The position numbers were made by a program, and so were the translations under genes. Positions 48,247 through 64,000 of a stretch of DNA of 64,000 bases are shown piece by piece; position 1 is the first letter of the stretch; every line of letters starts with the position of its first letter. The notes beneath the pieces were generated by a model that saw nothing but the letters and a program-made list of their open reading frames with translations, searched no databases and was not told where the DNA came from. The stretch comes from a virus. The stretch lies in IMG/VR virus record IMGVR_UViG_3300009130_000010, positions 1 to 64,000 of that record, one strand, 5' to 3'.

Positions 48247-48325
48247 TTTTTTCTCCTATTAGCTGTATAATCCAGCTATTGTGTTTTATTTACTGTTTAA
48301 GGTACCTAGGACAACGATTTCTGAA

Positions 48326-48916
48326 CTATTTCTTCGTTTTCTCCCAAACTACCATGTTATGATACTTTTTTTCACCTTCTGGTGTGGTTATACTATGTAC
48401 TTTTTCAATACTAACAACTTTTAAATCAGTCTGTTTTTCCCAACCACCTTCTGTTATCCAATCTTTTGGAGTTATACACATACTACAATATAGTAACCCG
48501 TCGTCAGTTAAACTATCAGCTATATGCTTTGAAGCACTAGCATCAACGTGTCCAAATGTTAGTACGCCAATTGCTGTTAAGCATTTATATTTTTGTGGTA
48601 ATGGTGCTTTAGTTATATCGTGTATCTTAGTAGTTCTATAATTACCTGCCACAAATCTATTAAGCATAGGTTGATTTAAATCGTAACCATCAATTAAGTA
48701 TTTGTGATTTATTAATCCAAGTCCTACTTGACCGTTTCCACAACCAATGTCTCCTACTTCTGTTCCTTCTAGAAAATTATCTATAATCCAATTAGAAGCA
48801 ATAGTATGACATACCCATCCTCGTTCATTTATAACTTCGTCATGATAGTTATCCCAACCATCATACAATTCGCTATTACTTTTTTTATAAATTTCGTCTA
48901 ACCAATAATCAGTCAT
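48326..48916 (-). CDS. Class I SAM-dependent methyltransferase
   Basis: LYDGW, VGDIGCGNG motif I, IDGYDLNQPML, GVLTFGHV. Confidence 0.88.
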   Translation of the reverse strand: MTDYWLDEIYKKSNSELYDGWDNYHDEVINERGWVCHTIASNWIIDNFLEGTEVGDIGCGNGQVGLGLINHKYLIDGYDLNQPMLNRFVAGNYRTTKIHDITKAPLPQKYKCLTAIGVLTFGHVDASASKHIADSLTDDGLLYCSMCITPKDWITEGGWEKQTDLKVVSIEKVHSITTPEGEKKYHNMVVWEKTKK

Positions 48917-49598
48917 AATATTTTACCATGTCATTTAGGTTTTCTCTAGCTGTTCGATATTTGTTAATTATGTTTTTAGTATCTTCGTATCCAATACTCA
49001 TACCACACAATACAATTTTTTCTTTATACTCAGGTAATTCTTGTCTTACTATATCAGCATACTCTCCTAATGACCCCTGTGGACAGGTTGCCAGGCCATG
49101 TTCAACAGCTGACAACATAATCGACTGTATAAACATACCATAGTCTACATAAGAACCTTTGCCTAATGCTCTGTCAATAAAAAATAATAACATAACAGGA
49201 GCATCAAACCCTCTATAATTTTTAGCATATAACAAATTTTTACGTTCTGTCATTTCTCTAGTAATACCTAGTTGATTATATAAAGCTAATCCACATTCTT
49301 TTCTTCGTTGCTTATACTCTCCAAACCATTCAGCATCTTTTTCACTAAACTTATCAAATGGATAATACTCGTAATCCATAACAGGTGTTATACCAGAACT
49401 AAATGCTTCTTCTAATTTGTTACATAAATTATTTTTTGACGTACCTGTAAGTACAGCTACTTGCCAAGGTTGATGATTATCACCACTTGGTGCTTGTTTG
49501 GCTTGCTCTAATATTTTGTTTATAGTATCAATAGAAACTTCTTTATTTAAAAAAGCTCTTGTTGACTTACGAGTTGCTAAAGCATCACTAACTATCAT
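48909..49598 (-). CDS. Nitroreductase-family flavoprotein
   Basis: RKSTRAF, APSGDNHQPW, FDAP, DYGMFIQSIMLSA..GLATCPQ, GMSIGY. Confidence 0.93.
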   Translation of the reverse strand: MIVSDALATRKSTRAFLNKEVSIDTINKILEQAKQAPSGDNHQPWQVAVLTGTSKNNLCNKLEEAFSSGITPVMDYEYYPFDKFSEKDAEWFGEYKQRRKECGLALYNQLGITREMTERKNLLYAKNYRGFDAPVMLLFFIDRALGKGSYVDYGMFIQSIMLSAVEHGLATCPQGSLGEYADIVRQELPEYKEKIVLCGMSIGYEDTKNIINKYRTARENLNDMVKYYD

Positions 49599-51010
49599 AC
49601 TTCTGAATAATCCTTTACATTAACCTTAGAAATAATATGAGGAGGAAAACTATTTTTAACAATGGCAGGCAATTTACTTCTTTGAAATTTATTTGGACCA
49701 GAAAAATATAAATGTTCAGTTACATGATATATATCGTGTGGTCGTTTAGCCTTTTGAGCATTATCAGTAAAGTGTTTAGCTACATCATTAGCATTAGCTG
49801 TTCCTGTATATATTAAGTAATGAAGTTCATCTTGTTCGCAACTAGCAACATTTTCAACACCAGGAACTTCGAGTGCCAATGCTTCTACTAATCCTGTATA
49901 AATTTTTATACCACTTTTCATAAAGATAACATCATCAAACACTCTACCAGAATAATACCATGTACCATTTTCATCTCTAAACTTATCACCATCTGTTTGC
50001 CAATCTAGTGTTCCGTACTTGTACCAAAGTACGCCTTCTTTGTCAAGTTTTAACTCCCCGTTATAAAGATGTTTTGTAAATCCATAAAAGTTTTTTATTG
50101 GATCACCTGGTCTATAAACAGCAACTGAATGGCAATCTGCTTCTGTACTTGCCATCATATTGTAAATTGCTTTAAACTTAAATTTCTTTATAATACTTTT
50201 GAGAACTACTTCTGGTGTATGTCCTCCAGAACATTCCCAGTAATCTATAGGCCAATTGAAATCATCAGGACATTCATCAACTATCTTTTTAATAGCATTA
50301 GGATATGATATACAACAATTAGGTTTTGCTTTTACTATCTCCCCAGGTATATTATCTCCCCAATTTAAAAAATGTATACTACCACCTATTAAGTATATTC
50401 TTAACAAGTTATAAGGATTATAAGTAGCAGTAAATCCTGCTGTACAAAGAATTCTTGGTCGTTTATCTTTTGTAAATTCAGGTGCTATAGCAAATAAATG
50501 ATTAGTAGATGCCTGTGCTGTACATCCTAATAATGTCTGCCCATCTACAATAGCTTCTTCATGATCTTCGTAATCCCAAAAGAAAGGATACATTTCAAAA
50601 AACTCTTTAACTGTAGTTCCGCTTGTCATACCTCTATATATTTCTTTAGGATGTAATATAGTAGGTCCTGTTTCAGCTGGATCACTTAACATTGTTATTT
50701 TATTAGAACGTATAATACAAGTTGCTTTACAACCTTTAATCAATCCTTCACGCTCCATCTTAGATTGTCTAGCGTCAGCCTGTGTAGCTGATCCACCGTT
50801 TTTAATACTAGCAAGTATCCATAAGTAATCATCTATTGTAACTTGATCTTCTGCTATTACAAAAACAACGTGTGGTCCTATACCATGCTCTTTAAGTCTT
50901 TTAATTTTAGCATCTAAATTATCGTGTAACTCTCCCCAAGTAATTTGTTCAGTAGAATTACTTAAAAAAATATCATCTTCACTGAGAGGTCCTTGTGTTT
51001 GTTTTAACAT
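49595..51010 (-). CDS. Adenylate-forming (ANL superfamily) acyl-CoA/AMP ligase
   Basis: MTSGTT P-loop, YNMMASTE, QTDGD, SGRVFDDVIFMKSG, C-terminal NKFQR lysine. Confidence 0.8.
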   Translation of the reverse strand: MLKQTQGPLSEDDIFLSNSTEQITWGELHDNLDAKIKRLKEHGIGPHVVFVIAEDQVTIDDYLWILASIKNGGSATQADARQSKMEREGLIKGCKATCIIRSNKITMLSDPAETGPTILHPKEIYRGMTSGTTVKEFFEMYPFFWDYEDHEEAIVDGQTLLGCTAQASTNHLFAIAPEFTKDKRPRILCTAGFTATYNPYNLLRIYLIGGSIHFLNWGDNIPGEIVKAKPNCCISYPNAIKKIVDECPDDFNWPIDYWECSGGHTPEVVLKSIIKKFKFKAIYNMMASTEADCHSVAVYRPGDPIKNFYGFTKHLYNGELKLDKEGVLWYKYGTLDWQTDGDKFRDENGTWYYSGRVFDDVIFMKSGIKIYTGLVEALALEVPGVENVASCEQDELHYLIYTGTANANDVAKHFTDNAQKAKRPHDIYHVTEHLYFSGPNKFQRSKLPAIVKNSFPPHIISKVNVKDYSEV

Positions 51011-51011
51011 A

Positions 51012-51824
51012 TTATTCCTTAAAAATATTTGTGTAATCTAATGCTACACGCCAAAGTTCTCTACTTTTGTTTACAACAGGTGAACGTCTGTGTATAGTAT
51101 ACAATTGATCCATTAATAATAAATCACCTTTTTTAAATACAAAATGTTTTTGATAAATTGATCTGTCTAATGTTTTTTTATATTTTTCTTTTACAATATC
51201 TACGTTTACTGGCTCACCGTTTTGCCATGCTTTTTCTAACAATGGTGGTTGCCAATATAAAAACTCTTGCCCATCTACAGGATGTTTATTTACTGCTGGC
51301 ATACAGTCATCACCGTCGTGATGAATTGGCATAACGTAATCATCTAAACTTGTATCAACATTTGATTCTTCTTTTGACCCATATATACCATAACTACTAA
51401 AATTGTTTAACTGTATATCAATAGAACGCCAATAGTCTTTTTCTTTTTCAGGTAACTCATTAAAAGCATCTCTATTGTTTAATAAACTAAAAACAGTATC
51501 AGGACATTCTCCTACACAATATAAAGCAATTAGTATTTCTTTAAACTCACCTAAATGATGTATTGTGCCATTGGCGTGCCATTGTAGTTCTGTTTCTCCA
51601 AACAATCCACCTGGCATTACTCTTGCTATGTCTGGATTTTCTTTTGGGTTATAATGAAATTGTCCCATTGTATCGTCGTCTGTATTTCCTATACGTCTAC
51701 AATAGTCAACTAGTTGAGGTTGTGTTAAATTTTGTTCATGATGAAATGTATATCCATCTTTTAATACTTGTTGAATTTCTGATTTTAATTCTGAATCTGT
51801 ATATTCTAATACTTGTACAGTCAT
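51012..51824 (-). CDS. TauD/TfdA-family Fe(II)/2-oxoglutarate dioxygenase
   Basis: EQNLT, WHANG (HxN), KHPVDG, KGDLLLMDQLYTIHRR, RELWR. Confidence 0.85.
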   Translation of the reverse strand: MTVQVLEYTDSELKSEIQQVLKDGYTFHHEQNLTQPQLVDYCRRIGNTDDDTMGQFHYNPKENPDIARVMPGGLFGETELQWHANGTIHHLGEFKEILIALYCVGECPDTVFSLLNNRDAFNELPEKEKDYWRSIDIQLNNFSSYGIYGSKEESNVDTSLDDYVMPIHHDGDDCMPAVNKHPVDGQEFLYWQPPLLEKAWQNGEPVNVDIVKEKYKKTLDRSIYQKHFVFKKGDLLLMDQLYTIHRRSPVVNKSRELWRVALDYTNIFKE

Positions 51825-51857
51825 TGATAACACCCTTTACTATGCTTTAATTACTTA

Positions 51858-52724
51858 TTATTTCTTCCAACGATCATCACGTTTATTGTATGCTTGAACA
51901 ACTCTATCAATAATAATTGCTAAAGCAACTATTGACAATCCACTTATAACACCTAATCCTAAAAATTGATTTCCAACAGCGTTCATAACTTGTGACCCTA
52001 ACCCTCTAACACCAATCATTGATGCTATTACTACCATTGCCAGTGCCATCATTATTGTTTGGTTAATACCACCAAAAATTGTTGCTCTTGCTAACGGTAA
52101 TTCAACAAGAGCTAAAATATGTTTAGCTCGTAATCCTAATGCTTCTGCTGTTTCTATTAAATCTTTATTAATTTCTCGAATACCGATATTTGTAAATCTA
52201 ATTACTGGTGGCATAGCATAAAAACATATAGCAATTAAGCCAGGGACTTTGCCAAGTCCAAATAACATTATAACAGGAATTAGATATACAAAACTAGGAA
52301 TAGTTTGCATGAAATCAAGCATAGGTAAAATTATAGATTGTGCTTTATCTTTTTTTGCCATTAGTATTCCGAGAGGAATACCAAATGTAACACAAATAAA
52401 TGTAGATACAGAAACTATAGCTAAAGTTCTCATGGTATCATCCCACATACCAACTAAACCTATAGCTATAAAGGCAGTCAATGATCCTAAAATTATTTTC
52501 CAGTTTTTAGTAAGAACCCATATTAATAATCCTACTACTAATAAGAATACATAATATGGCGTTGCTAATAATAATTTTTCAAACCAAATAAGAAAATAGA
52601 GGAGTGGGGAAAGAAAGTCTTGGAAACTTTCTCCCCACGTACTAGCAAATTCTCTAAACGTACTGTCAATAAATTTCTTAATCGCTACTATGTTACTCTT
52701 TTCCAATGATGGAAAATTACTCAT
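51858..52724 (-). CDS. proW: ABC transporter permease, ProW/OpuAB family
   Basis: Hydrophobic; LDFMQTIPSFVYLIP, GLGKVP, PPVIRFT, EAA-like loop ETAEALG, GINQTIMMALAMVVIASMIG. Confidence 0.93.
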   Translation of the reverse strand: MSNFPSLEKSNIVAIKKFIDSTFREFASTWGESFQDFLSPLLYFLIWFEKLLLATPYYVFLLVVGLLIWVLTKNWKIILGSLTAFIAIGLVGMWDDTMRTLAIVSVSTFICVTFGIPLGILMAKKDKAQSIILPMLDFMQTIPSFVYLIPVIMLFGLGKVPGLIAICFYAMPPVIRFTNIGIREINKDLIETAEALGLRAKHILALVELPLARATIFGGINQTIMMALAMVVIASMIGVRGLGSQVMNAVGNQFLGLGVISGLSIVALAIIIDRVVQAYNKRDDRWKK

Positions 52725-52729
52725 AGCTA

Positions 52730-53755
52730 TTAATCAAGTGTTACGTTCAAGCCTAGCTTTTCAGCCGCCTCCGGCGTTACCCATTTAGACCAAGTTTCTT
52801 TATGTGATTTAAGAAACTCTATAGCAACGTCAGTTGGTGATGCTTGATTATCATTAGAATATATTAATAAAGTGTTTAATACATCACCTGGCATTTGCCT
52901 TTTAGATAGATAAACCATTACATCTGGATGAAGACCCGATGTAACTACTGTGGCAATAATTGTTTCTGGATATGCTGATGGCTTTGGTCCAATACATTCA
53001 TCATCAGGTAATGTTATACACTCCCAATTTTCTTGTCCAGCGAATTCAGTTTCAAAAGGAAGTTTTGACAATCCTAATTTACCTACTAATAATGTTGGTG
53101 ACCAGTAATAACCGAAAAAGTTTTCCTTTTTAGTTACAGCACCAGTCCAAGCGGCATCTAAACCTACACCAGATCCAGGGTTAATAAGTTTCCAGCCTTT
53201 TGCCTCCATATCAAATGCTTCGAATAAATTTTGATGTTGCATTTGACAAGCCCAGCCGTCAGGACAAATAGCAATTCCGCCTTTTGTCGCATCTTCTGGA
53301 TGTGGAAATAGTTCTGGATGTTCAAGTACCTTTTCAAAAGAAGTTAATTCCGGATGTGCTTCTAACACATAATCAGGAACATAAAATCCTTCACCAGCAC
53401 CTTCAATAACTCCTATACTTGCTGTAAGTAATTTACCTTCAGCTACAGCTTCGTCATATCCAGCACCTAAAAATGAAGTCCAAGCTTCACTAAAAATATT
53501 AGGTGACTCTGTGGCTAACATTGACGTAATAGTAGCTTCAGTTCCACCTGGAACTATTTCTACTTTATGTCCATAGCCTATTTTAAGTATTACAGTATCA
53601 ATATGAGCCAATATCGTTCCCGATGGCCAATTGAGTTCTGCTATTTTAATTTCGTCAGCTTTTGCTTGTGCTGTAAATAACCCGGCTGTTGAAACCATAG
53701 ATATAAACAGCATACTGACTATAATTAAGAAACGTTTAATGTGTTTGCTAGTCAT
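52730..53755 (-). CDS. proX: ABC transporter substrate-binding protein, ProX/OpuAC (betaine-type) family
   Basis: Signal peptide; ELNWPS, EAW, GEGFYVP, CPDGWAC, GYYWSPT, WSKWV. Confidence 0.88.
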   Translation of the reverse strand: MTSKHIKRFLIIVSMLFISMVSTAGLFTAQAKADEIKIAELNWPSGTILAHIDTVILKIGYGHKVEIVPGGTEATITSMLATESPNIFSEAWTSFLGAGYDEAVAEGKLLTASIGVIEGAGEGFYVPDYVLEAHPELTSFEKVLEHPELFPHPEDATKGGIAICPDGWACQMQHQNLFEAFDMEAKGWKLINPGSGVGLDAAWTGAVTKKENFFGYYWSPTLLVGKLGLSKLPFETEFAGQENWECITLPDDECIGPKPSAYPETIIATVVTSGLHPDVMVYLSKRQMPGDVLNTLLIYSNDNQASPTDVAIEFLKSHKETWSKWVTPEAAEKLGLNVTLD

Positions 53756-53766
53756 TTCTTTCTCCT

Positions 53767-55530
53767 TTAGTTAACGTTAACGTCATTATTGTAACTGGTA
53801 AAACCGTTTTCTTTAGTAACGGTAAGCACGTTGTTTACTCTACCAGCAAGTTCATCTCTATGTGAGATAAGCCATATGCTTTTCTTTCTTTCTCTTGATA
53901 TCTTTTTCAAAACAGCAAGAGAGCTTTCAACTCCAGAGGTGTCCATGCCTGAGTCAATCAACTCGTCGATAAACAACAAGTTTATAGGTTGGTATAGATT
54001 TTCCCAAACATCGCGGAAAGACCAACTTAATGCTAATATCAATCTATTCCTCTCACCTCTGGATAAGTTATCAAAGTCAAGATCGCGACCTAACTCGGTG
54101 ATCTCAATTGATAAATCATTTTGGAATATCACTTTATGTGGTAATCCAATCTTGTCAAGATAGTATGTTAATCGTTTATTTAAGAATGCTAAATTCTGTT
54201 CAATAATACGTTTACGAACAAAACTATCTTTACTTGTTAGTAACTTGTATAAAAATTCTTGGTGTTCTTTTACGTTATTTAACTGTTCTAATACATCAAA
54301 CGAGATCTCTTGAAGACCAGACTCTTCCATTTCAGTTATTTGTTCATTATAGGTATTTTCTTCTGCTTGTTTATTTGTCAATTGATCTTCAAGAGTTGTT
54401 AACGTACTTTTATGATTGTGTGCTTCTGTGGCACTTTCATAAAAAGTTTCTGGTCGTTTACCAATATCAACTCTTAATAAAATTTGTTCAGCAACTCTAT
54501 TATTTGCATTTTCTAATTCTTTTGTTATATCTTTTTGTTCTTTCTGAAGATTTTTTAATTTTTCTTTATAATCTTTTAAATGTTTAATGTCTTGACCACA
54601 ACTATCACAAGTATGATTTTCAACAAGTTTTAGACTGTCAGCAATTTTTTCTGATTCTTTAATAAGTCTATCTACTGCTCGTTCACTACTAGCTACCTCG
54701 GTCTCTAATAACGATTGTTCGTTTTTAAGAGTCATAAAATCATTTAATTGCTCATGTTGTTTTAATTCAGCATCAATGTCTACATCACCTAAATCAGCAA
54801 TCGCTTTTTCTAATTTTTGTACTTGCTCGTCTTTACTATCTTCCCATAACTTACTTCTACGTTTAAGATTTTCTATTTGTTCTTTAATATGAGCATTTGC
54901 TTGTTCAACACCTTGTATTCTATATTCTTCTTCTTTAGCATCATCTCTATTTTTCTTCATCTGTTCTTTAAGTTTCTCAGATTTTTCACTTAATAAAGTA
55001 ATACCTAATAGTTGCTCAATAATAGCACGTTGGTCATTATTTTTAAGTGCTAAAAAAGGTTCCGTGTAAGTGTTCAGTGCCACAACGTGTTTAAACATTT
55101 CGTGACCCATTTCAAGTAAACGATTTATTTCATGTTGTGTTTCTCTACTATCACCTTGAGCATTATCTTCTGCTTCTTGCTCTTGCTCATCAATATAAAA
55201 TTTTAATAAGTTAGGTCTACGCCCACGTTCAATTTTATACTTCTTATCATTCTTTTCAAATTCTAAACAAACAAGCATATTCTTGGCGTTTGTTTTATTA
55301 ATTAAATTGTCAACTCTAATCTTAGTAAGTGCTTGTCCGTATAAAGCATAACTTAAAGCATTAATGATTGTTGTTTTACCAGTACCATTTCTAGCACCTG
55401 TATCATCACCACCTAAGTCTAAGTTCTCTCCGAGTACAAGTGTTAAATCATCTCTATTGAAATCTATTGCCTGTGTGCTGTTACCCACACTCATAAAGTT
55501 CTTGACTGTAATACTGTTTAAGTTAAACAT
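53767..55530 (-). CDS. Recombination endonuclease ATPase subunit (T4 gp46/SbcC/Rad50-like)
   Basis: KNFMSVG, NGTGKTT, CDSC zinc hook, LSRGE signature, LLFIDE, ISH. Confidence 0.96.
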   Translation of the reverse strand: MFNLNSITVKNFMSVGNSTQAIDFNRDDLTLVLGENLDLGGDDTGARNGTGKTTIINALSYALYGQALTKIRVDNLINKTNAKNMLVCLEFEKNDKKYKIERGRRPNLLKFYIDEQEQEAEDNAQGDSRETQHEINRLLEMGHEMFKHVVALNTYTEPFLALKNNDQRAIIEQLLGITLLSEKSEKLKEQMKKNRDDAKEEEYRIQGVEQANAHIKEQIENLKRRSKLWEDSKDEQVQKLEKAIADLGDVDIDAELKQHEQLNDFMTLKNEQSLLETEVASSERAVDRLIKESEKIADSLKLVENHTCDSCGQDIKHLKDYKEKLKNLQKEQKDITKELENANNRVAEQILLRVDIGKRPETFYESATEAHNHKSTLTTLEDQLTNKQAEENTYNEQITEMEESGLQEISFDVLEQLNNVKEHQEFLYKLLTSKDSFVRKRIIEQNLAFLNKRLTYYLDKIGLPHKVIFQNDLSIEITELGRDLDFDNLSRGERNRLILALSWSFRDVWENLYQPINLLFIDELIDSGMDTSGVESSLAVLKKISRERKKSIWLISHRDELAGRVNNVLTVTKENGFTSYNNDVNVN

Positions 55531-56543
55531 TAAAGGTCCCTGTAAATTTCTCTTAAAAGATCTTTATCATAAAAATCACTTTGTACAGCATCAAGTTGAC
55601 TATAAACAATACTGTCTACTGATTCAAAATTAATTTCTACTGTCTCATCAACATTTGTATCTTCTAACTTTTGTTGTATTAAACTTAATTCACGTATAGG
55701 ATATTGTTCCATAAAATTTTCTCTTATAAAATTAGCTTCTTCATAACTAATTTCAATATCAAGCATAACTCTAGCATACGTTTTTGGTAACAAATACTCT
55801 TCAGGTTTATCTAACAGTTGTCCTAACTTTAATGTTTTATACTTTGGAGCATCTGGCCATGCTGTATACTTGGGTTCTTTACCCCATTCTAAAGTCATTA
55901 TACCACGCTCGTCATCCCAAGCATCTGAGTAATTGTGTGGGAAAGCATTACCAATATATGTAATGTTTCCTCTTGTTTGTCTTTTATGAAAATGTCCACT
56001 AAAGGCGTGTTCGACACCACCAAAGTCTTTGTCATGTAGTTCACCAACATCGGGCATTTGTACCATGGCATTCATATAAAAGTGAGGAAGCTCTAGGTGT
56101 CCAAACATATATTTGGCTTTTAATTTTTTAATACTTTTATGTTCGTCACCTACTAGCCATGGTACGATCGCCACGTCACCATCTACAGTAACGTCGTTGT
56201 AAATTTTTATATTTGAATAATTTTTAATCCAAGCAATTGAATTAAAATCTCGTTTATCACGATAATATTCATCATGATTTCCTGGAATGAAAATCATTTT
56301 TTCGAATGCTTTACTTAAAGCATCGATGGCTTTAATACTATAATTGAGTGTAGCAACATTAATTGCCGCCCTGTGATGGTGCCAATCGCCGAGGAATATA
56401 CAAGTCTCACAGTCTTGTTCTTTACCTTGTTCAATAGCCCAATTAACGAAGTCTATACAGTCATCATTAAACAACGATGAATTGGACTTATTACCAAAAT
56501 GAATGTCTGTAAAGGCTAATGCCTTTTTAAATAAATTTGCCAT
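55530..56543 (-). CDS. Recombination endonuclease nuclease subunit (T4 gp47/SbcD/Mre11-like)
   Basis: TDIHFG, LGDWHH, GNHD, GHLE, SGHFH. Confidence 0.96.
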   Translation of the reverse strand: MANLFKKALAFTDIHFGNKSNSSLFNDDCIDFVNWAIEQGKEQDCETCIFLGDWHHHRAAINVATLNYSIKAIDALSKAFEKMIFIPGNHDEYYRDKRDFNSIAWIKNYSNIKIYNDVTVDGDVAIVPWLVGDEHKSIKKLKAKYMFGHLELPHFYMNAMVQMPDVGELHDKDFGGVEHAFSGHFHKRQTRGNITYIGNAFPHNYSDAWDDERGIMTLEWGKEPKYTAWPDAPKYKTLKLGQLLDKPEEYLLPKTYARVMLDIEISYEEANFIRENFMEQYPIRELSLIQQKLEDTNVDETVEINFESVDSIVYSQLDAVQSDFYDKDLLREIYRDL

Positions 56544-56563
56544 ATACCAACCTTATTATGACT

Positions 56564-56593
56564 ATTATACATTAACAATAATAGCTTTGTCAA
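56564..56593 (-). promoter_or_regulatory. Sigma70 promoter of the gp47-gp46 operon, likely continuing into proX/proW
   Basis: TTGACA-18nt-TATAAT. Confidence 0.8.
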
Positions 56594-56627
56594 TCTTTTT
56601 CCTAGGAAGAATCCAAAATATTTCCAT

Positions 56628-57497
56628 TTAGTCACGAACCTTTGGCCAAGCATCTTTTTTGATACTAACCACAGGTCCATTATTCTCACCTGGTTTCATT
56701 TTCCCAGATTTAATTTCATTTTCTGTTTGTCTTGTAAAGCTAGGCATTAAACCTGCTTCTTCAAGAATATCATCTCTAATAATTTGATTACGTTTTTCTA
56801 AATTTAAAACTCTTGTAAAACTATTTGTAATAGCCGCTGTATAATAAGCAAATGGGTTTTGTGATTTGGATTCGTCGAATTGTAATCCAATTTGACTTAA
56901 TTGTAATAGTGCTGTACTTCTCATTTCATCATTGTAAGTATAGCCACGCCAGTTAGATCTAGTAGCATAACGTTCACATAATTTTATAAACATTTTAGCT
57001 AATTCGTTATTAATAGCACCATGCTCTTTATTAAAGAATCCATTTTCCATACCACCTTCCCAGTGACTTTTACCAATAATTATTAGCTCACCTTCTTCAT
57101 TAAAGCGATAATGTTGATATGGTGGAAAGTTACATCGAACGTGTCGGTCAGCTATTGTTTTTGGGTTTTTCTTTCTACCTGGTTCTTCCGGTATATGCTC
57201 AAAAGTCATAATACGGAACACTACATCTGTTTTAAGAATTTTCTTCCAATCAACAGCAAATTCGGCTTGTTTTACTTTTTGTCCATCTTCGATGGCGGCT
57301 GTATAAGCCAATTTTGCTTGTCTATCTGCCCTATTACGTTTGGCTTCGGCTGTAGTTCTGATGTTTATTCTATCGATTGATGGCAAAATGATATCATATT
57401 GACTATCAGTTTCAGGATCAACATATGAACTATAACTATTTTTACTATTCGCGATCTCTTTTAAGAGGTCTCTATTATTTAAATATTTTTTTCTCAT
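56628..57497 (-). CDS. Late-transcription sigma factor (T4 gp55-like); start likely ATG 57497
   Basis: YLNNRDLL, NWRGYTYNDEM, FDESKSQNPFAYYT, SFTRVLNLEKR; gp55-47-46 synteny. Confidence 0.88.
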   Translation of the reverse strand: MRKKYLNNRDLLKEIANSKNSYSSYVDPETDSQYDIILPSIDRINIRTTAEAKRNRADRQAKLAYTAAIEDGQKVKQAEFAVDWKKILKTDVVFRIMTFEHIPEEPGRKKNPKTIADRHVRCNFPPYQHYRFNEEGELIIIGKSHWEGGMENGFFNKEHGAINNELAKMFIKLCERYATRSNWRGYTYNDEMRSTALLQLSQIGLQFDESKSQNPFAYYTAAITNSFTRVLNLEKRNQIIRDDILEEAGLMPSFTRQTENEIKSGKMKPGENNGPVVSIKKDAWPKVRD

Positions 57498-57536
57498 AAA
57501 TGTTTTCCTTTTATTATATACCCATATAATAACACA

Positions 57537-57544
57537 TATAAATA
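57537..57544 (+). promoter_or_regulatory. Late promoter TATAAATA for the baseplate operon
   Basis: Exact T4 late consensus. The TAAATA core also recurs at 1829, 3417, 8253, 11564, 11626, 12624, 14341, 15717, 24730, 29559, 32343, 33312, 37294, 37611, 37835, 42325, 42357, 43558, 46812 and 48287. Confidence 0.8.
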
Positions 57545-57578
57545 CAAAGAGCAAGACAAAAAAAGGAAATAATTAGTA

Positions 57579-58619
57579 ATGGCAATTCATAACAGGACAA
57601 ACCCACACGTTGGAGTAAGTCACCCCGACAACTACGGAGCATACGTTACTGACGATGCTACTGGCAAAATAACTTGGCGTAATACTGGCCAAGGAGGCGG
57701 TCGCGAAGGCGGTCATGCTAACGTACACGGCGGTGCCGCGAGTTCTGGGTATAAAGAATTTAGAGGAGAAGGCGAAGGTAATTCAAAAACTGATAAAAAA
57801 CCTATATCATCTAAAAATCTTAATACTCTTATCACTGATTTCTTTTCCAATTTTAGACAGCAAAATTTACGAAGTACAGTTCCTGCTGGTGCTGAAGTAC
57901 CAAAAAGAACAAGGGGAAAAATAACAGATAACCGAGTAAACGACACACATGAAAGAAGGGTAAAATTATCTCTCCCTGATGGTTTGAGACGTTTTTACAA
58001 TGCTGACAACGGTGAAGAAGCTGGATTATTAAAACCATTAATTGAAAGTAGAGGAATAATTTTTCCTTATACTCCTCAAATTATTATGAATAATACAGCC
58101 GTTTATAATTCGCGTTCCCCTGTACATACTAATTATCCCTTTCAAATGTATTCTAACTCACAAGTGAGTACAATTAACTTACTAGTACAATTTACAGCTC
58201 AAAACGCCGAAGAGGCAAGATATGTTTTAGCTTGTATAACATTTTTAAGACTAGTAACAAAGAGTTTTAGAAACAATGATCCAGATGCTGGATCACCTCC
58301 TCCAGTATTACGATTATCAGGACACGGTAAAAATTTAATACCAAGGGTACCAGTAGTTGTACAAGACTTTGCTTTAACATTGCCTAACAATGTTGATTAT
58401 ATAACTATTGACGATAATCCATTACATGATACTGACAGAAGTTTTGCTTTACGAGCCATGGATAGAGCAGGTAAAGAAATGGCTGTTGACAGGGTTCCAA
58501 CAGTAACAGATATTTCTGTTACAATGATGCCTGTATACAGCAGAATGCAACTTGCTGATTATGATGTCCGAGATATAGTTTCAGGAGGATTGTTAGGTAA
58601 CCCAGAAGGATTCTTATAA
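57579..58619 (+). CDS. Baseplate/tail tube initiator-like protein
   Basis: GIIFPYTPQI, HTNYP, FTAQN, GSPPPVLRLSG, VPVVV, LPNNVDYI. Confidence 0.7.
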   Translation: MAIHNRTNPHVGVSHPDNYGAYVTDDATGKITWRNTGQGGGREGGHANVHGGAASSGYKEFRGEGEGNSKTDKKPISSKNLNTLITDFFSNFRQQNLRSTVPAGAEVPKRTRGKITDNRVNDTHERRVKLSLPDGLRRFYNADNGEEAGLLKPLIESRGIIFPYTPQIIMNNTAVYNSRSPVHTNYPFQMYSNSQVSTINLLVQFTAQNAEEARYVLACITFLRLVTKSFRNNDPDAGSPPPVLRLSGHGKNLIPRVPVVVQDFALTLPNNVDYITIDDNPLHDTDRSFALRAMDRAGKEMAVDRVPTVTDISVTMMPVYSRMQLADYDVRDIVSGGLLGNPEGFL

Positions 58620-58918
58620 TGGCTGATTACTCACAAACTAGTCCTTATTACTCTACATCACAAATAAAACAAGAACTTCAAGTTTTAAATTATAGAGATA
58701 TACCACACGAAGCTGATGACTTGTCTTACGAGATAACAGCAGAATTTAATAATAGACCCGACCTATTAGCATACGATCTTTATGGAAATGCTAGTTACTG
58801 GTGGGTTTTTACAAACAGAAACCCTGATGTTCTAAAAGATCCAGTATGGGATTTCACAACAGGAAAAGTTATTTTTTTACCAAAGAAAAGTTCTATTAAA
58901 GAAGTACTAGGAACATAA
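58619..58918 (+). CDS. Baseplate wedge protein (gp53/LysM-like)
   Basis: RPDLLAYDLYGNASYWWVF..RN..LKDP. Confidence 0.85.
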   Translation: MADYSQTSPYYSTSQIKQELQVLNYRDIPHEADDLSYEITAEFNNRPDLLAYDLYGNASYWWVFTNRNPDVLKDPVWDFTTGKVIFLPKKSSIKEVLGT

Positions 58919-58919
58919 A

Positions 58920-61900
58920 ATGGCAGATAAAGCCTACCTATCATCAAAAGATTACACAGGTCATTATTCTAACATTGATAAACTTAATGCTGGAAGTATG
59001 ACATTGAGTGCTGTCCAATTTGCTAATCCTAATATACCTATATACAAAGACGGTGTAACTGGCAAGTATACAGGTAGTCCGACAGCTAATTATCCAAAAG
59101 ATATTAAAACTTGGTATAATACAAATTCTGCCAACGATGTTCTTGGTAAAAAATATATAGGACAATGGCCTTATAATGGTAATGGATCACTTACAAAAGC
59201 AGGTTATGAAAAATTTAAATCTGAAGTTGTAATTAATAAACCAGTAGCTGTTGATAGGGCTCTTTACGCCACTGAAAACAGAAAACCTGCTACTTCTAAT
59301 GTAGTTCATGACATAGCACAACTAGATTCTGATATTAGAGATTCTCGAATAAAAGCAACAATGCTAATATCACATCGATTGAAGATGACAGAAAAGTTTA
59401 CCACTTCGGGCTCACCAAATGCATTTAAGCCAGAAACTACATATATTGAGAAACAATATTATAATGCTTTAAACTTGGCTATTAAAGCCACAGCTTCAAT
59501 TACTAAAGTAGGTGGTATTGAAAGAATTGAAAGACAAAAAGATCCTGAGAACAAAGTATTTTCATCTTATAATAAACTAGTATCATCTGTTACTGAAAAA
59601 GGTAAGGATGTACCTCCTAAAAATCTTACAGCTGAAGAACTTGATAGTTCAGTACCACAGCCTGGAGAAGTAATAGAACATTCAGGACAATCTAACGAGT
59701 CAGAGGCAACTTTCGCCGCAAAATTAGAAGTAGCCAAAAGTGCTATTAATGACTCATCTGAAATAATAAAATCTATGAAGGACGCTAGTACTACAAGCGT
59801 CGCTATTACTACAGACGGTTTCCCATTTAGTGGAAACACAAAACCTACAGTTGTCGAAAGTGAAGTTGTTGATAAAAGTGATCCAAAAAACACTCAAAGT
59901 AAAACTGGCAGTACTGTATCAACTATAAAGAAAGAAAAGATGTTTGACAAATGGAGACAACACCCAGGTGGTACTCCAAGAGATAATATGCTACATTATT
60001 TTGCTAGTTATAATACACAATTTGATTTATTCTTAATGAACCCAACTGATTATAATCATATTAATCAAAGTATAGCTATTGACAAATGGAACGAACAATT
60101 ATTTTTTGATTTTACAAAATTACCAGAAAGATTATTAATAAGTTCTTCCGGTGTTAGAACCGACCATACAAAAAAAGGATCATCTAGTAATAGGTATTTT
60201 GCTGATAGAGATTATTTTATTGATAATGTAGCTGTCGAAAGTTATGTAGCACCAGGTAAAAAAAGTGGCGGTGCCAAATATACCAATTGTAATTTAGAAA
60301 TATTCGAACCATATGGTTCGACACTATTAGAAAATTTAATTAGAGCAACAAATGATTCACCAATCGAAGGTGAATCATATATAGATATGCCGTATATGTT
60401 AAGAATTAAATTTAACGGGTATGACGAAACTGGTGAAAAACTTAATACACGAATACCAACAAAAGCTAACGAATTACCACCAAATATGAGAGGTGAAACT
60501 GTTTACAGTCAAAACGATTATGGTGTAAAATACTTAATGTTAAAAATTGGTAAATTTAATTTTAAAGTATCAAATGAAGGAACTACTTACCAACTCGAAT
60601 TTTATAATTATAATTCTTTTGCTCTTGAAGATTATGGGGGAATGGTTTCTTCCAACCTTCAAGTTAATTCAACAACATTAGGACAATTTTTTGGTTTATA
60701 TTCTGGAGGAAACTCTGATAATTCCAATCCAGATATCCATGGTAATGGTATTACAGCATATAGTTACGAAACACAACACTATGATAACCAATTTGGTTAT
60801 GTTCAAAGTGTTAAAAGCACACCAGCAAAAAAGATAGCTGGACCTATTCAAGGTGTTGGCGACACTCCACAATACGACACTCAAAGATATTTACAAGGTA
60901 TACCTGTAAAAAGTTATAGTGATGTTAATGAAAAAGGTGAAATATTAAATAGCGATACTGGAGCATGGGTTAAACCAGACGGAATGGGACATAGATATCA
61001 AGAAGGGCCACCTTCAGTGCGAGAGAATCCTGATATTAATTCTTTTAAACCAAAAACACTTGTAAAGAAAGGAACGACCCAGAGAAGTTTTGATGCTATT
61101 TTAAATAGCATTGAAGCAGAAAAATGTGTACCTGATCCGAAGACTGGCTATCAAGCCCAAGAATATGCTGACACATATAATTTTAAATTTAAAGAAGGTT
61201 TGTTTGACCGTACATTTTTAGATAAAAGAATAGCAAAACCAGATTCTTTTGATATAAATCATGTACCTGTTTTTAATAATTTAGTTAAAGCGACATCTCC
61301 GTACATAGCTAATTGGACTTTTGGAATGCAAGAAGGATTTGAAACAGCATTTCAAATACCAGCCGGTAAATCGATTATGGAAGTTATTCATGCTGTTATT
61401 AGTTCTAGTACATTTATGACTGACCAAGTTGAAACTGTAACAATGTCAAATGTAGGACGAGGAAATAATATAAAACAAGACATGACAATAGTTGATTGGA
61501 AAGATACAAAGGATCAACCTATTATAGCTTATAAAGTTACACCTATTGTCCATATTGGTAAATGGGATAGGATAAGAAAAACATATCAAAAACATTACAC
61601 TTACATTATAGCTTTATGTGAATTACAAGGTGAAACCGAAACTGATATGGGGAAATATGCTGTTACTGATGTTTGTAAGCAATATGATTATATGTACACT
61701 GGTACAAACAGAGATGTGTTAGAATTTGATTTAAACTTTGACGCCGCTTATTACGAAACTAATGTTATAGGTGGTTGGACATCTAAACTAGCAGGACAAA
61801 CATCAGCTGAAAAAACTAAAAAAGCAACGCTTCAAAGAAATGCTGATGCTTTCGCAAGTGCTTTTGTAACATCAACTAAAAATGTTAGAACAAATCAAAC

Positions 61901-62744
61901 TAGATGGATGCCTGGTAGTGCTAGTGATTTCCAAGTTGTAAAAGCACAAAATCTTATGACAAGAATATATAATACTGGTGCTGATAGACTAGCAGGCGAA
62001 TTAACAATAATTGGCGACCCAGATTTTATTGTACAAGACGAAGGATTTAATCTTGAAGCTTTTGCTAATCATTATAGTCCAAACGGTAGTATAAGCACAC
62101 ACAAACAACCTATTATTTTAATAAACTTTTTAACACCAATTGACATTAATTCTAAAACAGGTACTATCTTTAATCCTAACGATTTAGCAAGTGAAGGACC
62201 GGCCGGACGGTACGGTACACAAAAACCTTCAACATCAGTCTTTAGTGGTTTTTATAAAATTATGAATATAACATCTGCGTTTGAAGGCGGTACTTTCCAG
62301 CAAGTATTAAGGTTAGTACGAGTACAAAACCAAGAATATGATTATCCTGAAGGAAAATTAAGAACAGCAATGGGAGATGGTGCTGTAACTCAAAGCCCAT
62401 TTAAACACGGCGTAACACATGACAAATCATTACTACGACAATTAGATAACACACCTTTAACTGACGACGAAAAAGCCGCCAATAAAATTGCCGCTGAAGA
62501 AAGATTAAAAATGCATCAACACAATATCAAACATGGCTATGATAGGAAAGCTGTTTTAAATTATGGAAAACAAAAACCTAAACTTTCTGACGCTACTACC
62601 ACAAATGTTAAGTGGACGGAAGGACCAGCTAGTCAATATAAACGCGAATTACCAATAACTCAAATTCAGTCTAGCAAATCTAATGTAACTGGAGTTCTAC
62701 CTCCAGGGCTAAAAGATAAATTAAAAAAAGGTAATCAGTCCTAA
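58920..62744 (+). CDS. Large baseplate hub protein (gp27/late control D-like)
   Basis: IFEPYG, PYMLRIKFNG, YDYMYTG.N.DV, LTIIGDP, FSGFYKI...F.Q.L; lies between gp53 and gp5. Confidence 0.65.
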   Translation: MADKAYLSSKDYTGHYSNIDKLNAGSMTLSAVQFANPNIPIYKDGVTGKYTGSPTANYPKDIKTWYNTNSANDVLGKKYIGQWPYNGNGSLTKAGYEKFKSEVVINKPVAVDRALYATENRKPATSNVVHDIAQLDSDIRDSRIKATMLISHRLKMTEKFTTSGSPNAFKPETTYIEKQYYNALNLAIKATASITKVGGIERIERQKDPENKVFSSYNKLVSSVTEKGKDVPPKNLTAEELDSSVPQPGEVIEHSGQSNESEATFAAKLEVAKSAINDSSEIIKSMKDASTTSVAITTDGFPFSGNTKPTVVESEVVDKSDPKNTQSKTGSTVSTIKKEKMFDKWRQHPGGTPRDNMLHYFASYNTQFDLFLMNPTDYNHINQSIAIDKWNEQLFFDFTKLPERLLISSSGVRTDHTKKGSSSNRYFADRDYFIDNVAVESYVAPGKKSGGAKYTNCNLEIFEPYGSTLLENLIRATNDSPIEGESYIDMPYMLRIKFNGYDETGEKLNTRIPTKANELPPNMRGETVYSQNDYGVKYLMLKIGKFNFKVSNEGTTYQLEFYNYNSFALEDYGGMVSSNLQVNSTTLGQFFGLYSGGNSDNSNPDIHGNGITAYSYETQHYDNQFGYVQSVKSTPAKKIAGPIQGVGDTPQYDTQRYLQGIPVKSYSDVNEKGEILNSDTGAWVKPDGMGHRYQEGPPSVRENPDINSFKPKTLVKKGTTQRSFDAILNSIEAEKCVPDPKTGYQAQEYADTYNFKFKEGLFDRTFLDKRIAKPDSFDINHVPVFNNLVKATSPYIANWTFGMQEGFETAFQIPAGKSIMEVIHAVISSSTFMTDQVETVTMSNVGRGNNIKQDMTIVDWKDTKDQPIIAYKVTPIVHIGKWDRIRKTYQKHYTYIIALCELQGETETDMGKYAVTDVCKQYDYMYTGTNRDVLEFDLNFDAAYYETNVIGGWTSKLAGQTSAEKTKKATLQRNADAFASAFVTSTKNVRTNQTRWMPGSASDFQVVKAQNLMTRIYNTGADRLAGELTIIGDPDFIVQDEGFNLEAFANHYSPNGSISTHKQPIILINFLTPIDINSKTGTIFNPNDLASEGPAGRYGTQKPSTSVFSGFYKIMNITSAFEGGTFQQVLRLVRVQNQEYDYPEGKLRTAMGDGAVTQSPFKHGVTHDKSLLRQLDNTPLTDDEKAANKIAAEERLKMHQHNIKHGYDRKAVLNYGKQKPKLSDATTTNVKWTEGPASQYKRELPITQIQSSKSNVTGVLPPGLKDKLKKGNQS

Positions 62745-64000
62745 TGGCAAAGTATATTTTTAGAACAGATCCTAAAATGGCTGGCTCTAATTATAGAGCA
62801 GGAGAATTACCAGCTGGCCCATACATAGCAGAAGTAATGGCTATTGGCGACCCAACAAAAAATAATAGAGTTGCTGTTTCTATAATAGACCAAGACAATT
62901 CTGTTAGTAAAGATGATCCTGCCACATGGATTGATGTTACTATTGCTTTACCTCATTATGGTGCTGTACCTCATACGACAGGAAGATCTAGTAGATCAAA
63001 AGACGAACACGACGGTGGTACTAGTTATGGACTAACTATATCAGAACCTGATGTTGGTACAAATTGTCTAGTTACTTTTGCTAACGGTGACAGGTCACAA
63101 GGTTACATTATTGCTTTTATTCCAAACCCATTTCAAAGTGCTACAACTACAGGCAGAGGTATTGCTGTAGATAAAGAGCTAATAGCATGGACTGACTACG
63201 ATAAAGAAGAATGGTTTAACAGTGGTAAACAATTTCCTATCATAGAGAAAAACCTAAAAGCCGCAGATAAACCAAATTATTCTACTATTACAAAATTAAA
63301 ATACGGCTTTGATAGACTTATGTCTAGAATATTGTATGCTCAAGGATTATTATTTGATACTATTAGAGGTGTAACAAGTACTAGTACTGCCAGACAAGCA
63401 CCTAAGGGTATGATTGGTATGTCTACACAAGGACGTAAACTACCAGACCCAGCTGACGATTCAGAGCTATTAGAAAAATATCAAAGTAATCCATACGGAT
63501 TATCAACAAGTGAATTAGATATAACATCAAGAAAGCCAGGACATTCTTTTATAATGGATGATGGTGAAGTTAGTGGATCAAATGATTTAATTAGATTACG
63601 TTCGGGTACTGGGCATCAAATATTATTACATGATACAAAAGGCTTACTTTATATTGCTAACGCTTCAGGAACATCATGGATTGAAATGTCTAAGAGTGGT
63701 AAGATTGATATATTTGCTGGAGACTCGATGAGCATTCATACACATGGAGATTTAAATTTAACAGCCGATAGAAATTTTAATTTAACAGTTGGTGAAGATG
63801 TTAATATTTCAGCTAGTGGTAAAGTAAAATCACAATCTGGTAAAGGTACACATTTAACAGCAGGTGAATCTATAAGAACAAATGCTGGAACTAGTACAAC
63901 AATTAATAGTGGCACATTTATGGCCAACTATGCTGAGACAAATCAAACAATGATTGCTCAAGGAACTACTAACGTTGTAAGTAAAGGTATTCTATCACTT
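62744..64000 (+). CDS. Baseplate central spike (gp5/VgrG-like), 3' partial
   Basis: Read manually from ATG 62744: GPYIAEV...DPTKNNRVAV...PDVGTNCLVTF...GHSFIMDDG...IRLRSGTGHQILLHD...SWIEM, followed by beta-helix repeats. Confidence 0.88.
   Translation, partial: MAKYIFRTDPKMAGSNYRAGELPAGPYIAEVMAIGDPTKNNRVAVSIIDQDNSVSKDDPATWIDVTIALPHYGAVPHTTGRSSRSKDEHDGGTSYGLTISEPDVGTNCLVTFANGDRSQGYIIAFIPNPFQSATTTGRGIAVDKELIAWTDYDKEEWFNSGKQFPIIEKNLKAADKPNYSTITKLKYGFDRLMSRILYAQGLLFDTIRGVTSTSTARQAPKGMIGMSTQGRKLPDPADDSELLEKYQSNPYGLSTSELDITSRKPGHSFIMDDGEVSGSNDLIRLRSGTGHQILLHDTKGLLYIANASGTSWIEMSKSGKIDIFAGDSMSIHTHGDLNLTADRNFNLTVGEDVNISASGKVKSQSGKGTHLTAGESIRTNAGTSTTINSGTFMANYAETNQTMIAQGTTNVVSKGILSL

Follow-up and report, generated by a model that had tools for sequence, protein, structure and literature searches.

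Dimethylsulfoniopropionate (DMSP) is a major currency for reduced sulfur and carbon in ocean surface waters and the compound from which dimethyl sulfide (DMS), a climate-active gas, is formed. Here we describe four adjoining enzyme genes of an uncultured marine giant phage (IMG/VR record IMGVR_UViG_3300009130_000010, positions 1 to 64,000; this whole stretch of 64,000 nt is called the window below), coding for a TauD-like oxygenase, an adenylate-forming ligase, a nitroreductase and a methyltransferase, and located directly behind the genes of a substrate-binding protein (ProX) and a permease (ProW). The closest described transport system is DmpXWV, a DMSP-specific ATP-binding cassette (ABC) importer of Roseobacter and SAR11 bacteria (PMC10030565). 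Its DMSP-specific binding protein was solved with DMSP bound as RnDmpX (7YLE; Li et al., ISME J 2023, PMC10030565). The DMSP pocket of RnDmpX consists of W35, T64, W84, E113, W152, A153, Y200 and W202, and mutation of Tyr200 abolishes DMSP binding (PMC10030565). Trimethylamine N-oxide, betaine, choline and carnitine are bound poorly by DmpX. DddP, which a gene of a sister phage resembles, is an M24-peptidase-like DMSP lyase with structures 4RZY, 4S00 and 4B28 (PMC4108388).

In a literature search we came across no account of DmpX-type importers, DddP-like lyases or linked sets of enzymes encoded by phages. On the sequence evidence, the phage probably makes its host take up and convert a DMSP-type compound, by a chemistry that we infer. 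That the four genes supplement a DMSP-type import operon with enzymes is in our view likely; the whole statement, i.e. import plus oxidative or coenzyme A (CoA)-dependent processing of DMSP or a close analogue, is in our judgement evenly balanced. A previous sequence-only reading of the same DNA had proposed a compact phage enzyme module for a small molecule, or for virion or host proteins, with tailoring steps of the natural-product (ScoE) kind. The module is retained here and the natural-product chemistry is given up.

Importer genes

When the window ProX was compared with the PDB, RnDmpX was its only real solved relative (7YLE, E 7.5e-48), and none of the other OpuAC-family structures (ProX, ChoX, TmoX, OpuAC) reached E 1e-3. 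All eight residues of the DMSP pocket are identical in the phage protein (W43, T72, W92, E122, W168, A169, Y216 and W218, phage numbering). As in DmpXWV, a ProW-type permease gene lies directly downstream; its NCBIfam matches, ProW (5.5e-74) and ChoW (4.5e-72), were both below cut-off. Since two unrelated proteins, the DmpX-type ProX and the DddP-like protein of a sister phage described below, point to DMSP or a very close analogue, this is the substrate that we propose.

Related contigs and loci are designated here by L numbers. Between the window and six of them (L002, L006, L010, L011, L012 and L014) the binding protein is 51-55% identical and the permease 70-76% identical. The pocket string WTWEWAYW was found in the window protein alone, versus WIWEWSYW in the other phage copies, and the divergence of the window ProX, together with its exact RnDmpX pocket, suggests either an allele replacement or a ligand shift. 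In a quick tree, which did not settle the sister group, the phage binding proteins formed one well-supported, long-stemmed clade in the half containing SAR11, Roseobacter, SAR116 and Granulosicoccaceae. This clade indicates that the proteins have long resided in phages, and it does not name a host. The window ProW is 52-60% identical to proteins of Roseobacter, Granulosicoccaceae, SAR116, SAR11 and Vibrio alike, so that this permease, equally close to several taxa, and the tree together do not allow a host to be named. Contigs from RNA libraries of three studies gave near-exact matches to ProX, to the gp46/ProX and ProW/ProX junctions and to the Hc1-like gene; DNA carry-over being possible in RNA libraries, these matches hint weakly at best at transcription of ProX.

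Unlike DmpXWV, the phage locus has no DmpV ATPase and enzymes follow the permease in its place; it also differs in being phage-encoded, with binding proteins in a clade of their own. The sole ABC ATPase on the contig is SufC. Among the 80 cellular loci recovered with the permease, the ATPase lies directly downstream in 52 of the 58 non-SAR11 loci and in 0 of the 22 SAR11 loci. The latter (L075:2985-9018 and 21 other Pelagibacteraceae loci, L047-L096) carry MTHFR-like and then DmdA-like (GcvT-family) genes after the binding protein and permease, with a GbcA-like Rieske oxygenase on the divergent strand and, in about 12 of the 22, a METTL27-like methyltransferase also on that strand. This SAR11 methyltransferase (209 aa) is 32% identical to the phage methyltransferase over 115 aa. 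An ATPase-less importer with demethylating or oxidising enzymes and a methyltransferase of this type is also present in cells. The SAR11 island, whose function is putative, resembles the phage locus in its DmpX-type binding protein and permease without adjacent ATPase, in the linkage to demethylase and oxygenase genes and in the related small methyltransferase; it differs in its Rieske-type oxygenase and GcvT-type demethylase and in having no ANL ligase, nitroreductase or TauD.

A further comparison is offered by phage nutrient-uptake genes. Phage-borne pstS codes for a periplasmic binding component for the host ABC system, and here too the phage supplies the periplasmic binding part of such a system, but accompanied by a membrane permease and a downstream enzyme set.

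Conservation and variation of the locus

Homologues of the four genes, in the same order and with 42-82% amino-acid identity, were found in 22 IMG/VR contigs, and the genes are therefore more than chance open reading frames (ORFs). The cassette stretch was found again in DNA assemblies from several independent marine studies; DNA contigs of an independent 2024 study bridge, with few mismatches, the Hc1-like, methyltransferase and nitroreductase genes, the stretch from nitroreductase through ligase and TauD to ProW, and that from ProW through ProX to gp46. Among 50,697 phage records, neither megablast with the region nor tblastn with the ligase gave a match.

The slot in which the cassette lies has three different contents. 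In the window it holds ProX-ProW-TauD-ligase-nitroreductase-methyltransferase-Hc1; in the relative L120 (gp46 72% and PDDEXK 86% identical) the order is gp46-ProX-ProW-Hc1-PDDEXK, with no enzymes; in the near-isogenic L011/L136 (gp46 89%, PDDEXK 91%), an arrangement seen in two metagenome samples, it is ProX-ProW-ligase-[406 aa]-TauD-Hc1. An element of about 75 nt with a TAAATA motif precedes Hc1 in the window, in L011 (7399-7459) and in L120 (3300-3377). Given the enzyme-less L120, the cassette is a true insertion between ProW and this element. It is also optional as an add-on to the importer, which has no ATPase of its own, since L120 has the importer only and the L011 slot has a DddP-like gene in place of the nitroreductase and methyltransferase genes.

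Considering all distinct contig types (about 10), the enzymes abut ProX/ProW in seven, in three different gene orders; the importer lies upstream of the enzymes in the window, L002, L006, L011 and L012, and downstream of them in L010 and L014. In L013/L129 enzymes and ProX/ProW are about 10 kb apart on one contig. The identity matrices of ligase, nitroreductase, ProW and ProX correlate positively (Spearman 0.4-0.6); L013 and L014 are 95% identical in the ligase, 93% in the nitroreductase and 42% in the methyltransferase. The cassette genes are a recombining yet persistently co-located set, and the independent, shuffled occurrence that would speak against a common function was not what the relatives displayed. 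This adjacency in three gene orders is in line with a compact module of jointly inherited genes whose small-molecule substrate is most likely what ProX/ProW import; the earlier reading had proposed a compact module and had named the imported compound as a possible substrate.

Several relatives carry further genes in or near these loci. A third TauD gene and a desaturase gene lie nearby in L002, and a radical SAM/SPASM gene is inserted between ligase and nitroreductase in L006 (5867-6874) and located upstream of the cassette in L004 (3888-5027). ORFs of 479 and 486 aa are found 1.0-1.8 kb downstream of the methyltransferase gene in L006 and L012. In L010 (12199-13692) the gene directly after ProW codes for a TctA-family tricarboxylate transporter subunit (3e-83). 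In L017 (118-11900) a ligase-TauD(HxD)-methyltransferase group ends a long same-strand run, without importer, that includes three radical SAM genes with twitch domains, one PP-loop/QueC-like and one cupin gene, and a second AMP-binding ORF, which is short; the run may be a larger pathway. Where ProX/ProW stand alone in other relatives they are located among replication genes, and in L117 (7584-8995) the lone pair comes after genes for phosphoribosyl pyrophosphate synthetase, PsiE (phosphate starvation) and ClpP.

DddP-like gene of the sister phage

The 406-aa protein of L011 (5353-6573) occupies the place held in the window by the nitroreductase and methyltransferase. It matched the DddP structure 4rzy at 7.9e-70 and the NCBIfam DddP family at 9e-83, the next family following at 1e-18. 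Aligned with 4rzy, it has all six metal ligands, Tyr366 and Asp377 unchanged. The protein is a divergent, DddP-like subfamily member and a predicted lyase, and its gene is not in the window; on the window's own contig we found no known DMSP lyase (cupin PF16867), GcvT/DmdA or M24 genes. A cellular homologue of the L011 protein (59% identity) adjoins a BCCT betaine-type transporter.

Enzymes of the cassette

Three of the family labels that the sequence-only reading had given to the four enzymes hold by Pfam, and that of the methyltransferase is probable from motif I and profile matches. For the oxygenase (Pfam PF02668, 46.6 bits, cut-off 27) the likelier start is the ATG at 51824, with an AAGGG Shine-Dalgarno sequence, giving a protein of 270 aa. 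Its AlphaFold2 model (pLDDT 80) has a double-stranded beta-helix fold according to Foldseek, with ScoE/SfaA/Rv0097, TauD and AAD/FT_T all matching at 1e-15 to 1e-12 and 14-20% identity. These matches being equally good, the subfamily check did not single out ScoE, with which the earlier reading had compared the enzyme.

The metal triad is His-x-Asn...His (H83, N85 and H245 in the 270-aa numbering) and not the canonical HxD/E...H. The motif reads WH(A/S)NG...H; this Asn is kept in all of 16 homologues, with identities as low as 40%, and the residue aligned to it in the solved relatives FT_T/RdpA is the Asp of WHtD. HxD was found only in L017, as its sole type, and in the second copy of two-copy cassettes, beside an HxN copy. 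The residues for binding 2-oxoglutarate (Thr110 and Arg255) are invariant, as is Arg259, which matches the second Arg of TauD, a substrate-anion binder. The phage protein is thus like TauD, AtsK and TfdA in fold, in two His ligands, in the 2-oxoglutarate-binding Thr/Arg and in the substrate-anion Arg, and unlike them in having Asn for the carboxylate ligand in most members.

Against phage records the only match of the TauD protein was in Pelagibacter phage Mosig (33%). In this cultured SAR11 phage (EXVC030M; L029, record 50487-63275) the homologue, also HxN, lies in a methylase operon that further contains GNAT, cupin, desaturase, FMN reductase and nitroreductase genes, beside tail-fibre genes.

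The ligase (Pfam AMP-binding, 33.6 bits, cut-off 29.9) has all its motifs intact (A3 TSGTTxK, A5 STE, A7 TDGD, A8 GRxxD..K.G.K and the A10 Lys), and they are invariant in 15 homologues. Its AlphaFold2 model (pLDDT 80) has a two-domain fold, with Foldseek matches to MenE, EntE and DltA at 1e-17 to 1e-19. The A4 region, GFTATY, is without the alpha-amino-binding Asp of the adenylation domains of non-ribosomal peptide synthetases (NRPS). A profile search of 1.8 billion proteins gave 64 matches, the distant ones being NRPS adenylation domains, and the ESM Atlas clusters of the ligase were 100% viral, labelled only "viral AMP-binding". Pattern scans of GTDB, covering about 186,000 prokaryote species with one genome each, found no relatives of the ligase or of the TauD protein; as such scans find only fairly close relatives, this is not proof of absence. 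Both families appear to be virus-restricted. On the whole 103-kb contig there is no PP-binding carrier domain, which extends to the contig the earlier remark that the window has neither a carrier protein nor an NRPS.

Of the ATP-dependent enzymes of DMSP pathways, the acid-CoA ligases DmdB and PrpE are ANL enzymes like the phage ligase, while the lyase DddX comes from another superfamily. The role proposed here for the ligase is the same as theirs, i.e. ATP-dependent activation of a DMSP-derived or DMSP-like carboxylate. With DmdB and PrpE it has no specific sequence similarity, no equivalog-level match to either being found in NCBIfam, and it is a minimal ANL enzyme (471 aa) of a virus-only family.

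The nitroreductase (Pfam PF00881, 85.2 bits, cut-off 23.5, 7.9e-24) gave family-profile matches to 3gr3 (3.7e-53, residues 4-227), 7dp0 (2e-42) and 2wzv (2e-29). A RutE-like role was set aside because it rests on a weak N-terminal match (3e-4). For the methyltransferase, Pfam matches stayed below cut-off (22.2 bits versus 30); motif I (DIGCGNG) is conserved, the family profile matches 3d2l (1.8e-8) and METTL27 (2.6e-6), and the only ESM Atlas label is "METTL27-like methyltransferase". Two allelic types of this gene swap in the slot among relatives with otherwise near-identical backgrounds. A thiol methyltransferase of the MddH type was also considered and rejected: MddH is of the UbiE family, and we saw no specific similarity to the phage protein.

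Gene organisation

The source contig (IMG/VR, viral) is 102.9 kb long, with a CheckV completeness estimate of about 25%, and contains portal, baseplate and late-sigma genes. The window gp46 is 43-47% identical to that of jumbo phages such as PA5oct and Atu_ph07. On the minus strand the order is gp55-like sigma, gp47, gp46, ProX, ProW, TauD-like, ANL ligase, nitroreductase, methyltransferase, Hc1-like and PDDEXK (RusA-like), with gaps of at most 24 nt and overlaps at three junctions (Table 1). The four abutting or overlapping ORFs were found exactly where the sequence-only reading had placed them, between gp46/ProX/ProW and the Hc1-like/resolvase flank.

Table 1. Features of the importer and enzyme locus (window coordinates)
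Feature	Position	Strand	Remarks
Putative sigma70-type promoter	56564-56593	-	TTGACA-18-TATAAT, 12/12, just upstream of gp47; consensus match only
gp47 (SbcD-like)	55530-56543	-	Recombination nuclease gene; helps to fix the genomic slot
gp46 (SbcC-like)	53767-55530	-	Recombination nuclease gene; helps to fix the genomic slot
ProX, DmpX-type periplasmic substrate-binding protein	52730-53755	-	N-terminal signal-like hydrophobic stretch
DmpW/ProW-type ABC permease	51858-52724	-	BPD_transp_1 8.9e-27
TauD/TfdA-family Fe(II)/2-oxoglutarate oxygenase variant	51012-51833	-	1-nt gap to ligase gene
Stand-alone ANL adenylate-forming ligase	49595-51010	-	4-nt overlap with nitroreductase gene
NfnB-like NAD(P)H:FMN nitroreductase-family enzyme	48909-49598	-	8-nt overlap with methyltransferase gene
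Probable small class I S-adenosylmethionine-dependent methyltransferase, METTL27/WBSCR27-like	48326-48916	-	Motif I and profile match
Conserved intergenic element with TAAATA motif before Hc1-like gene	48247-48325	-	Right boundary of the insertion slot

The sigma70-type promoter before gp47 is the probable start of a transcription unit ending with the cassette. A TAAGTA hexamer, which had been taken as a late-promoter variant, is indeed present at 51857-51852, but it is a lone hexamer in an AT-rich 24-nt gap, and a late-promoter role is unsupported: the cassette closes the gp47-gp46-ProX-ProW unit headed by the 12/12 promoter, whereas the TAAATA motif is located before Hc1. There are no tRNAs in the window.

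Outside the window, at about 93850-95950 of the same contig (L032:647-2740), Fe-S assembly genes were found: SufC (2.5e-102, above cut-off) and, beside it, a short SufD-like gene (7e-40), a weak SufE-like gene and a glyoxalase/FosB-like gene. The SufC/SufD/SufE-like genes fit a theme of sulfur demand.

Discussion

We propose that early in infection the phage would make a DmpX-like binding protein and a DmpW-like permease, which would borrow a host ABC ATPase and import DMSP or a close sulfonium or betaine analogue. The cassette enzymes would then convert the imported compound or its first breakdown product. Acting on a substrate that bears a carboxylate, the TauD-like oxygenase would hydroxylate a carbon adjacent to the charged sulfur, and the unstable product could collapse either to 3-methylthiopropionate and formaldehyde (oxidative demethylation) or to a sulfide or thiol and malonate semialdehyde (C-S cleavage). 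TauD and AtsK follow the same oxidation logic next to sulfonate and sulfate. The ANL ligase would adenylate a short carboxylate (methylthiopropionate, acrylate or 3-hydroxypropionate) and transfer it to CoA, the flavin nitroreductase would reduce a reactive aldehyde or enoyl intermediate, and the methyltransferase would cap a thiol or another nucleophile. In L011 the DddP-like lyase would provide an alternative first step. From this conversion the phage would gain reduced sulfur, carbon and energy with which to replicate.

These individual chemical steps are each clearly doubtful; like them, we infer the substrate and the use of a host ATPase. A more specific version, in which the HxN TauD and the virus-only ligase form an unrecognised folate-independent, 2-oxoglutarate-driven breakdown of DMSP or of its thioether or thiol products, with CoA activation after an oxidative demethylation or C-S cleavage, is tentative and on the whole improbable. 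In this version the 2-His-1-Asn iron site, being neutral, could suit a substrate that is anionic or bears a thiolate.

Several observations weigh against an enzyme add-on to DMSP import. As regards transport, there is no ABC ATPase beside ProX and ProW in the window or in any phage locus examined, and the other six phage binding proteins keep 6 of the 8 pocket residues, with Ile and Ser at the two remaining positions, so that their ligand may differ. As regards linkage, adjacency alone is weak evidence because the accessory genes of phages often collect in hot spots; moreover, no importer is within reach of the enzymes in L004 and L017, ProX/ProW occur alone, with no enzymes, in L117, L118, L120, L126, L131 and L132, and Mosig has TauD and a methylase with neither ligase nor importer. 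No near-identical RNA-library contigs were seen on the four enzyme genes, such contigs being incapable of showing absence. As regards chemistry, no cassette enzyme has a specific match to a known DMSP enzyme. With Asn in place of Asp in its metal triad, the TauD variant could have a changed oxygenase activity or have lost it, and the ligase fold is generic ANL, 13-16% identical to any solved enzyme, with NCBIfam matches only to generic acyl-CoA synthetases at 25 bits or less, far below cut-off. The DddP-like protein scores 278 bits against an NCBIfam cut-off of 600, and its phage version was seen in one lineage only.

Alternatively, the same logic could apply to another onium compound or osmolyte, such as glycine betaine, dimethylsulfonioacetate, gonyol, arsenobetaine or a trimethylammonium or phosphonate compound. 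The two substituted pocket positions, which differ from DmpX in 6 of the 7 phage binding proteins, are carboxylate-contacting ones, the permease matches ProW and ChoW best, and the SAR11 island carries a betaine-type (GbcA-like) Rieske oxygenase. TauD-family enzymes are able to act on trimethylammonium compounds, as BBOX and TmpA do. We nevertheless regard this alternative as unlikely, considering that the window protein has the complete DmpX pocket with the Tyr critical for DMSP, that no other OpuAC-family structure came under E 1e-3 and that a sister cassette holds a DddP-like lyase.

Slightly less likely again, in our opinion, is that the enzymes have no link to the importer and belong to an oxygenase-rich accessory island, placed next to ProX/ProW by a recombination hot spot, that serves to modify macromolecules (protein, lipid or lipopolysaccharide, tRNA, DNA) or to detoxify oxidative or electrophilic stress. 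Direct abutment with the importer in three gene orders and about 7 of 10 lineages argues against it, as does the small-molecule lyase (DddP-like) that takes the place of two genes in the same slot; the kept substrate-anion Arg suits a small acid, and the ligase is without carrier or protein partner. Such an island would, on the other hand, agree with the company of the TauD(HxN)-methylase pair in Mosig (cupins, desaturase, GNAT and nitroreductase near tail-fibre genes), with the third TauD and the desaturase of L002 and with the ligase-TauD-methyltransferase group of L017 among twitch radical-SAM and PP-loop genes. The importer and enzyme modules also each occur separately, and methyltransferase alleles swap independently.

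A natural-product style pathway making a secondary metabolite (ScoE-like isonitrile or similar) is very improbable: a TauD-family oxygenase does stand beside an adenylating ligase as in the ScoE isonitrile lipopeptide clusters, SfaA, ScoE and Rv0097 are among the top Foldseek matches, the distant ligase matches are NRPS adenylation domains and some relatives have added radical-SAM/SPASM genes, but the ScoE equivalog score is 17.3 bits against a cut-off of 400, TauD and AAD match as well as ScoE by fold, the triad is HxN and not ScoE's HxD, the ligase has no alpha-amino-binding Asp, and no acyl or peptidyl carrier protein, ScoD or NRPS is found on the 103-kb contig.

Conclusions

The import and conversion of a DMSP-type compound that we favour bears on both enzymology and marine sulfur cycling. 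Enzymology gains two leads, a TauD iron site in the conserved 2-His-1-Asn form and a family of minimal ANL ligases for which only viral members are known, and the orphan binding-protein/permease pair, shared by the phages and SAR11, raises the question of which host ATPase powers transport. If the proposed uptake and conversion are true, infection would alter the split between DMS and methanethiol, and the supply of sulfur, directly and not only via lysis. If the 2-oxoglutarate-driven route is also true, giant marine phages would steer DMSP sulfur among DMS, methanethiol and biomass during infection.

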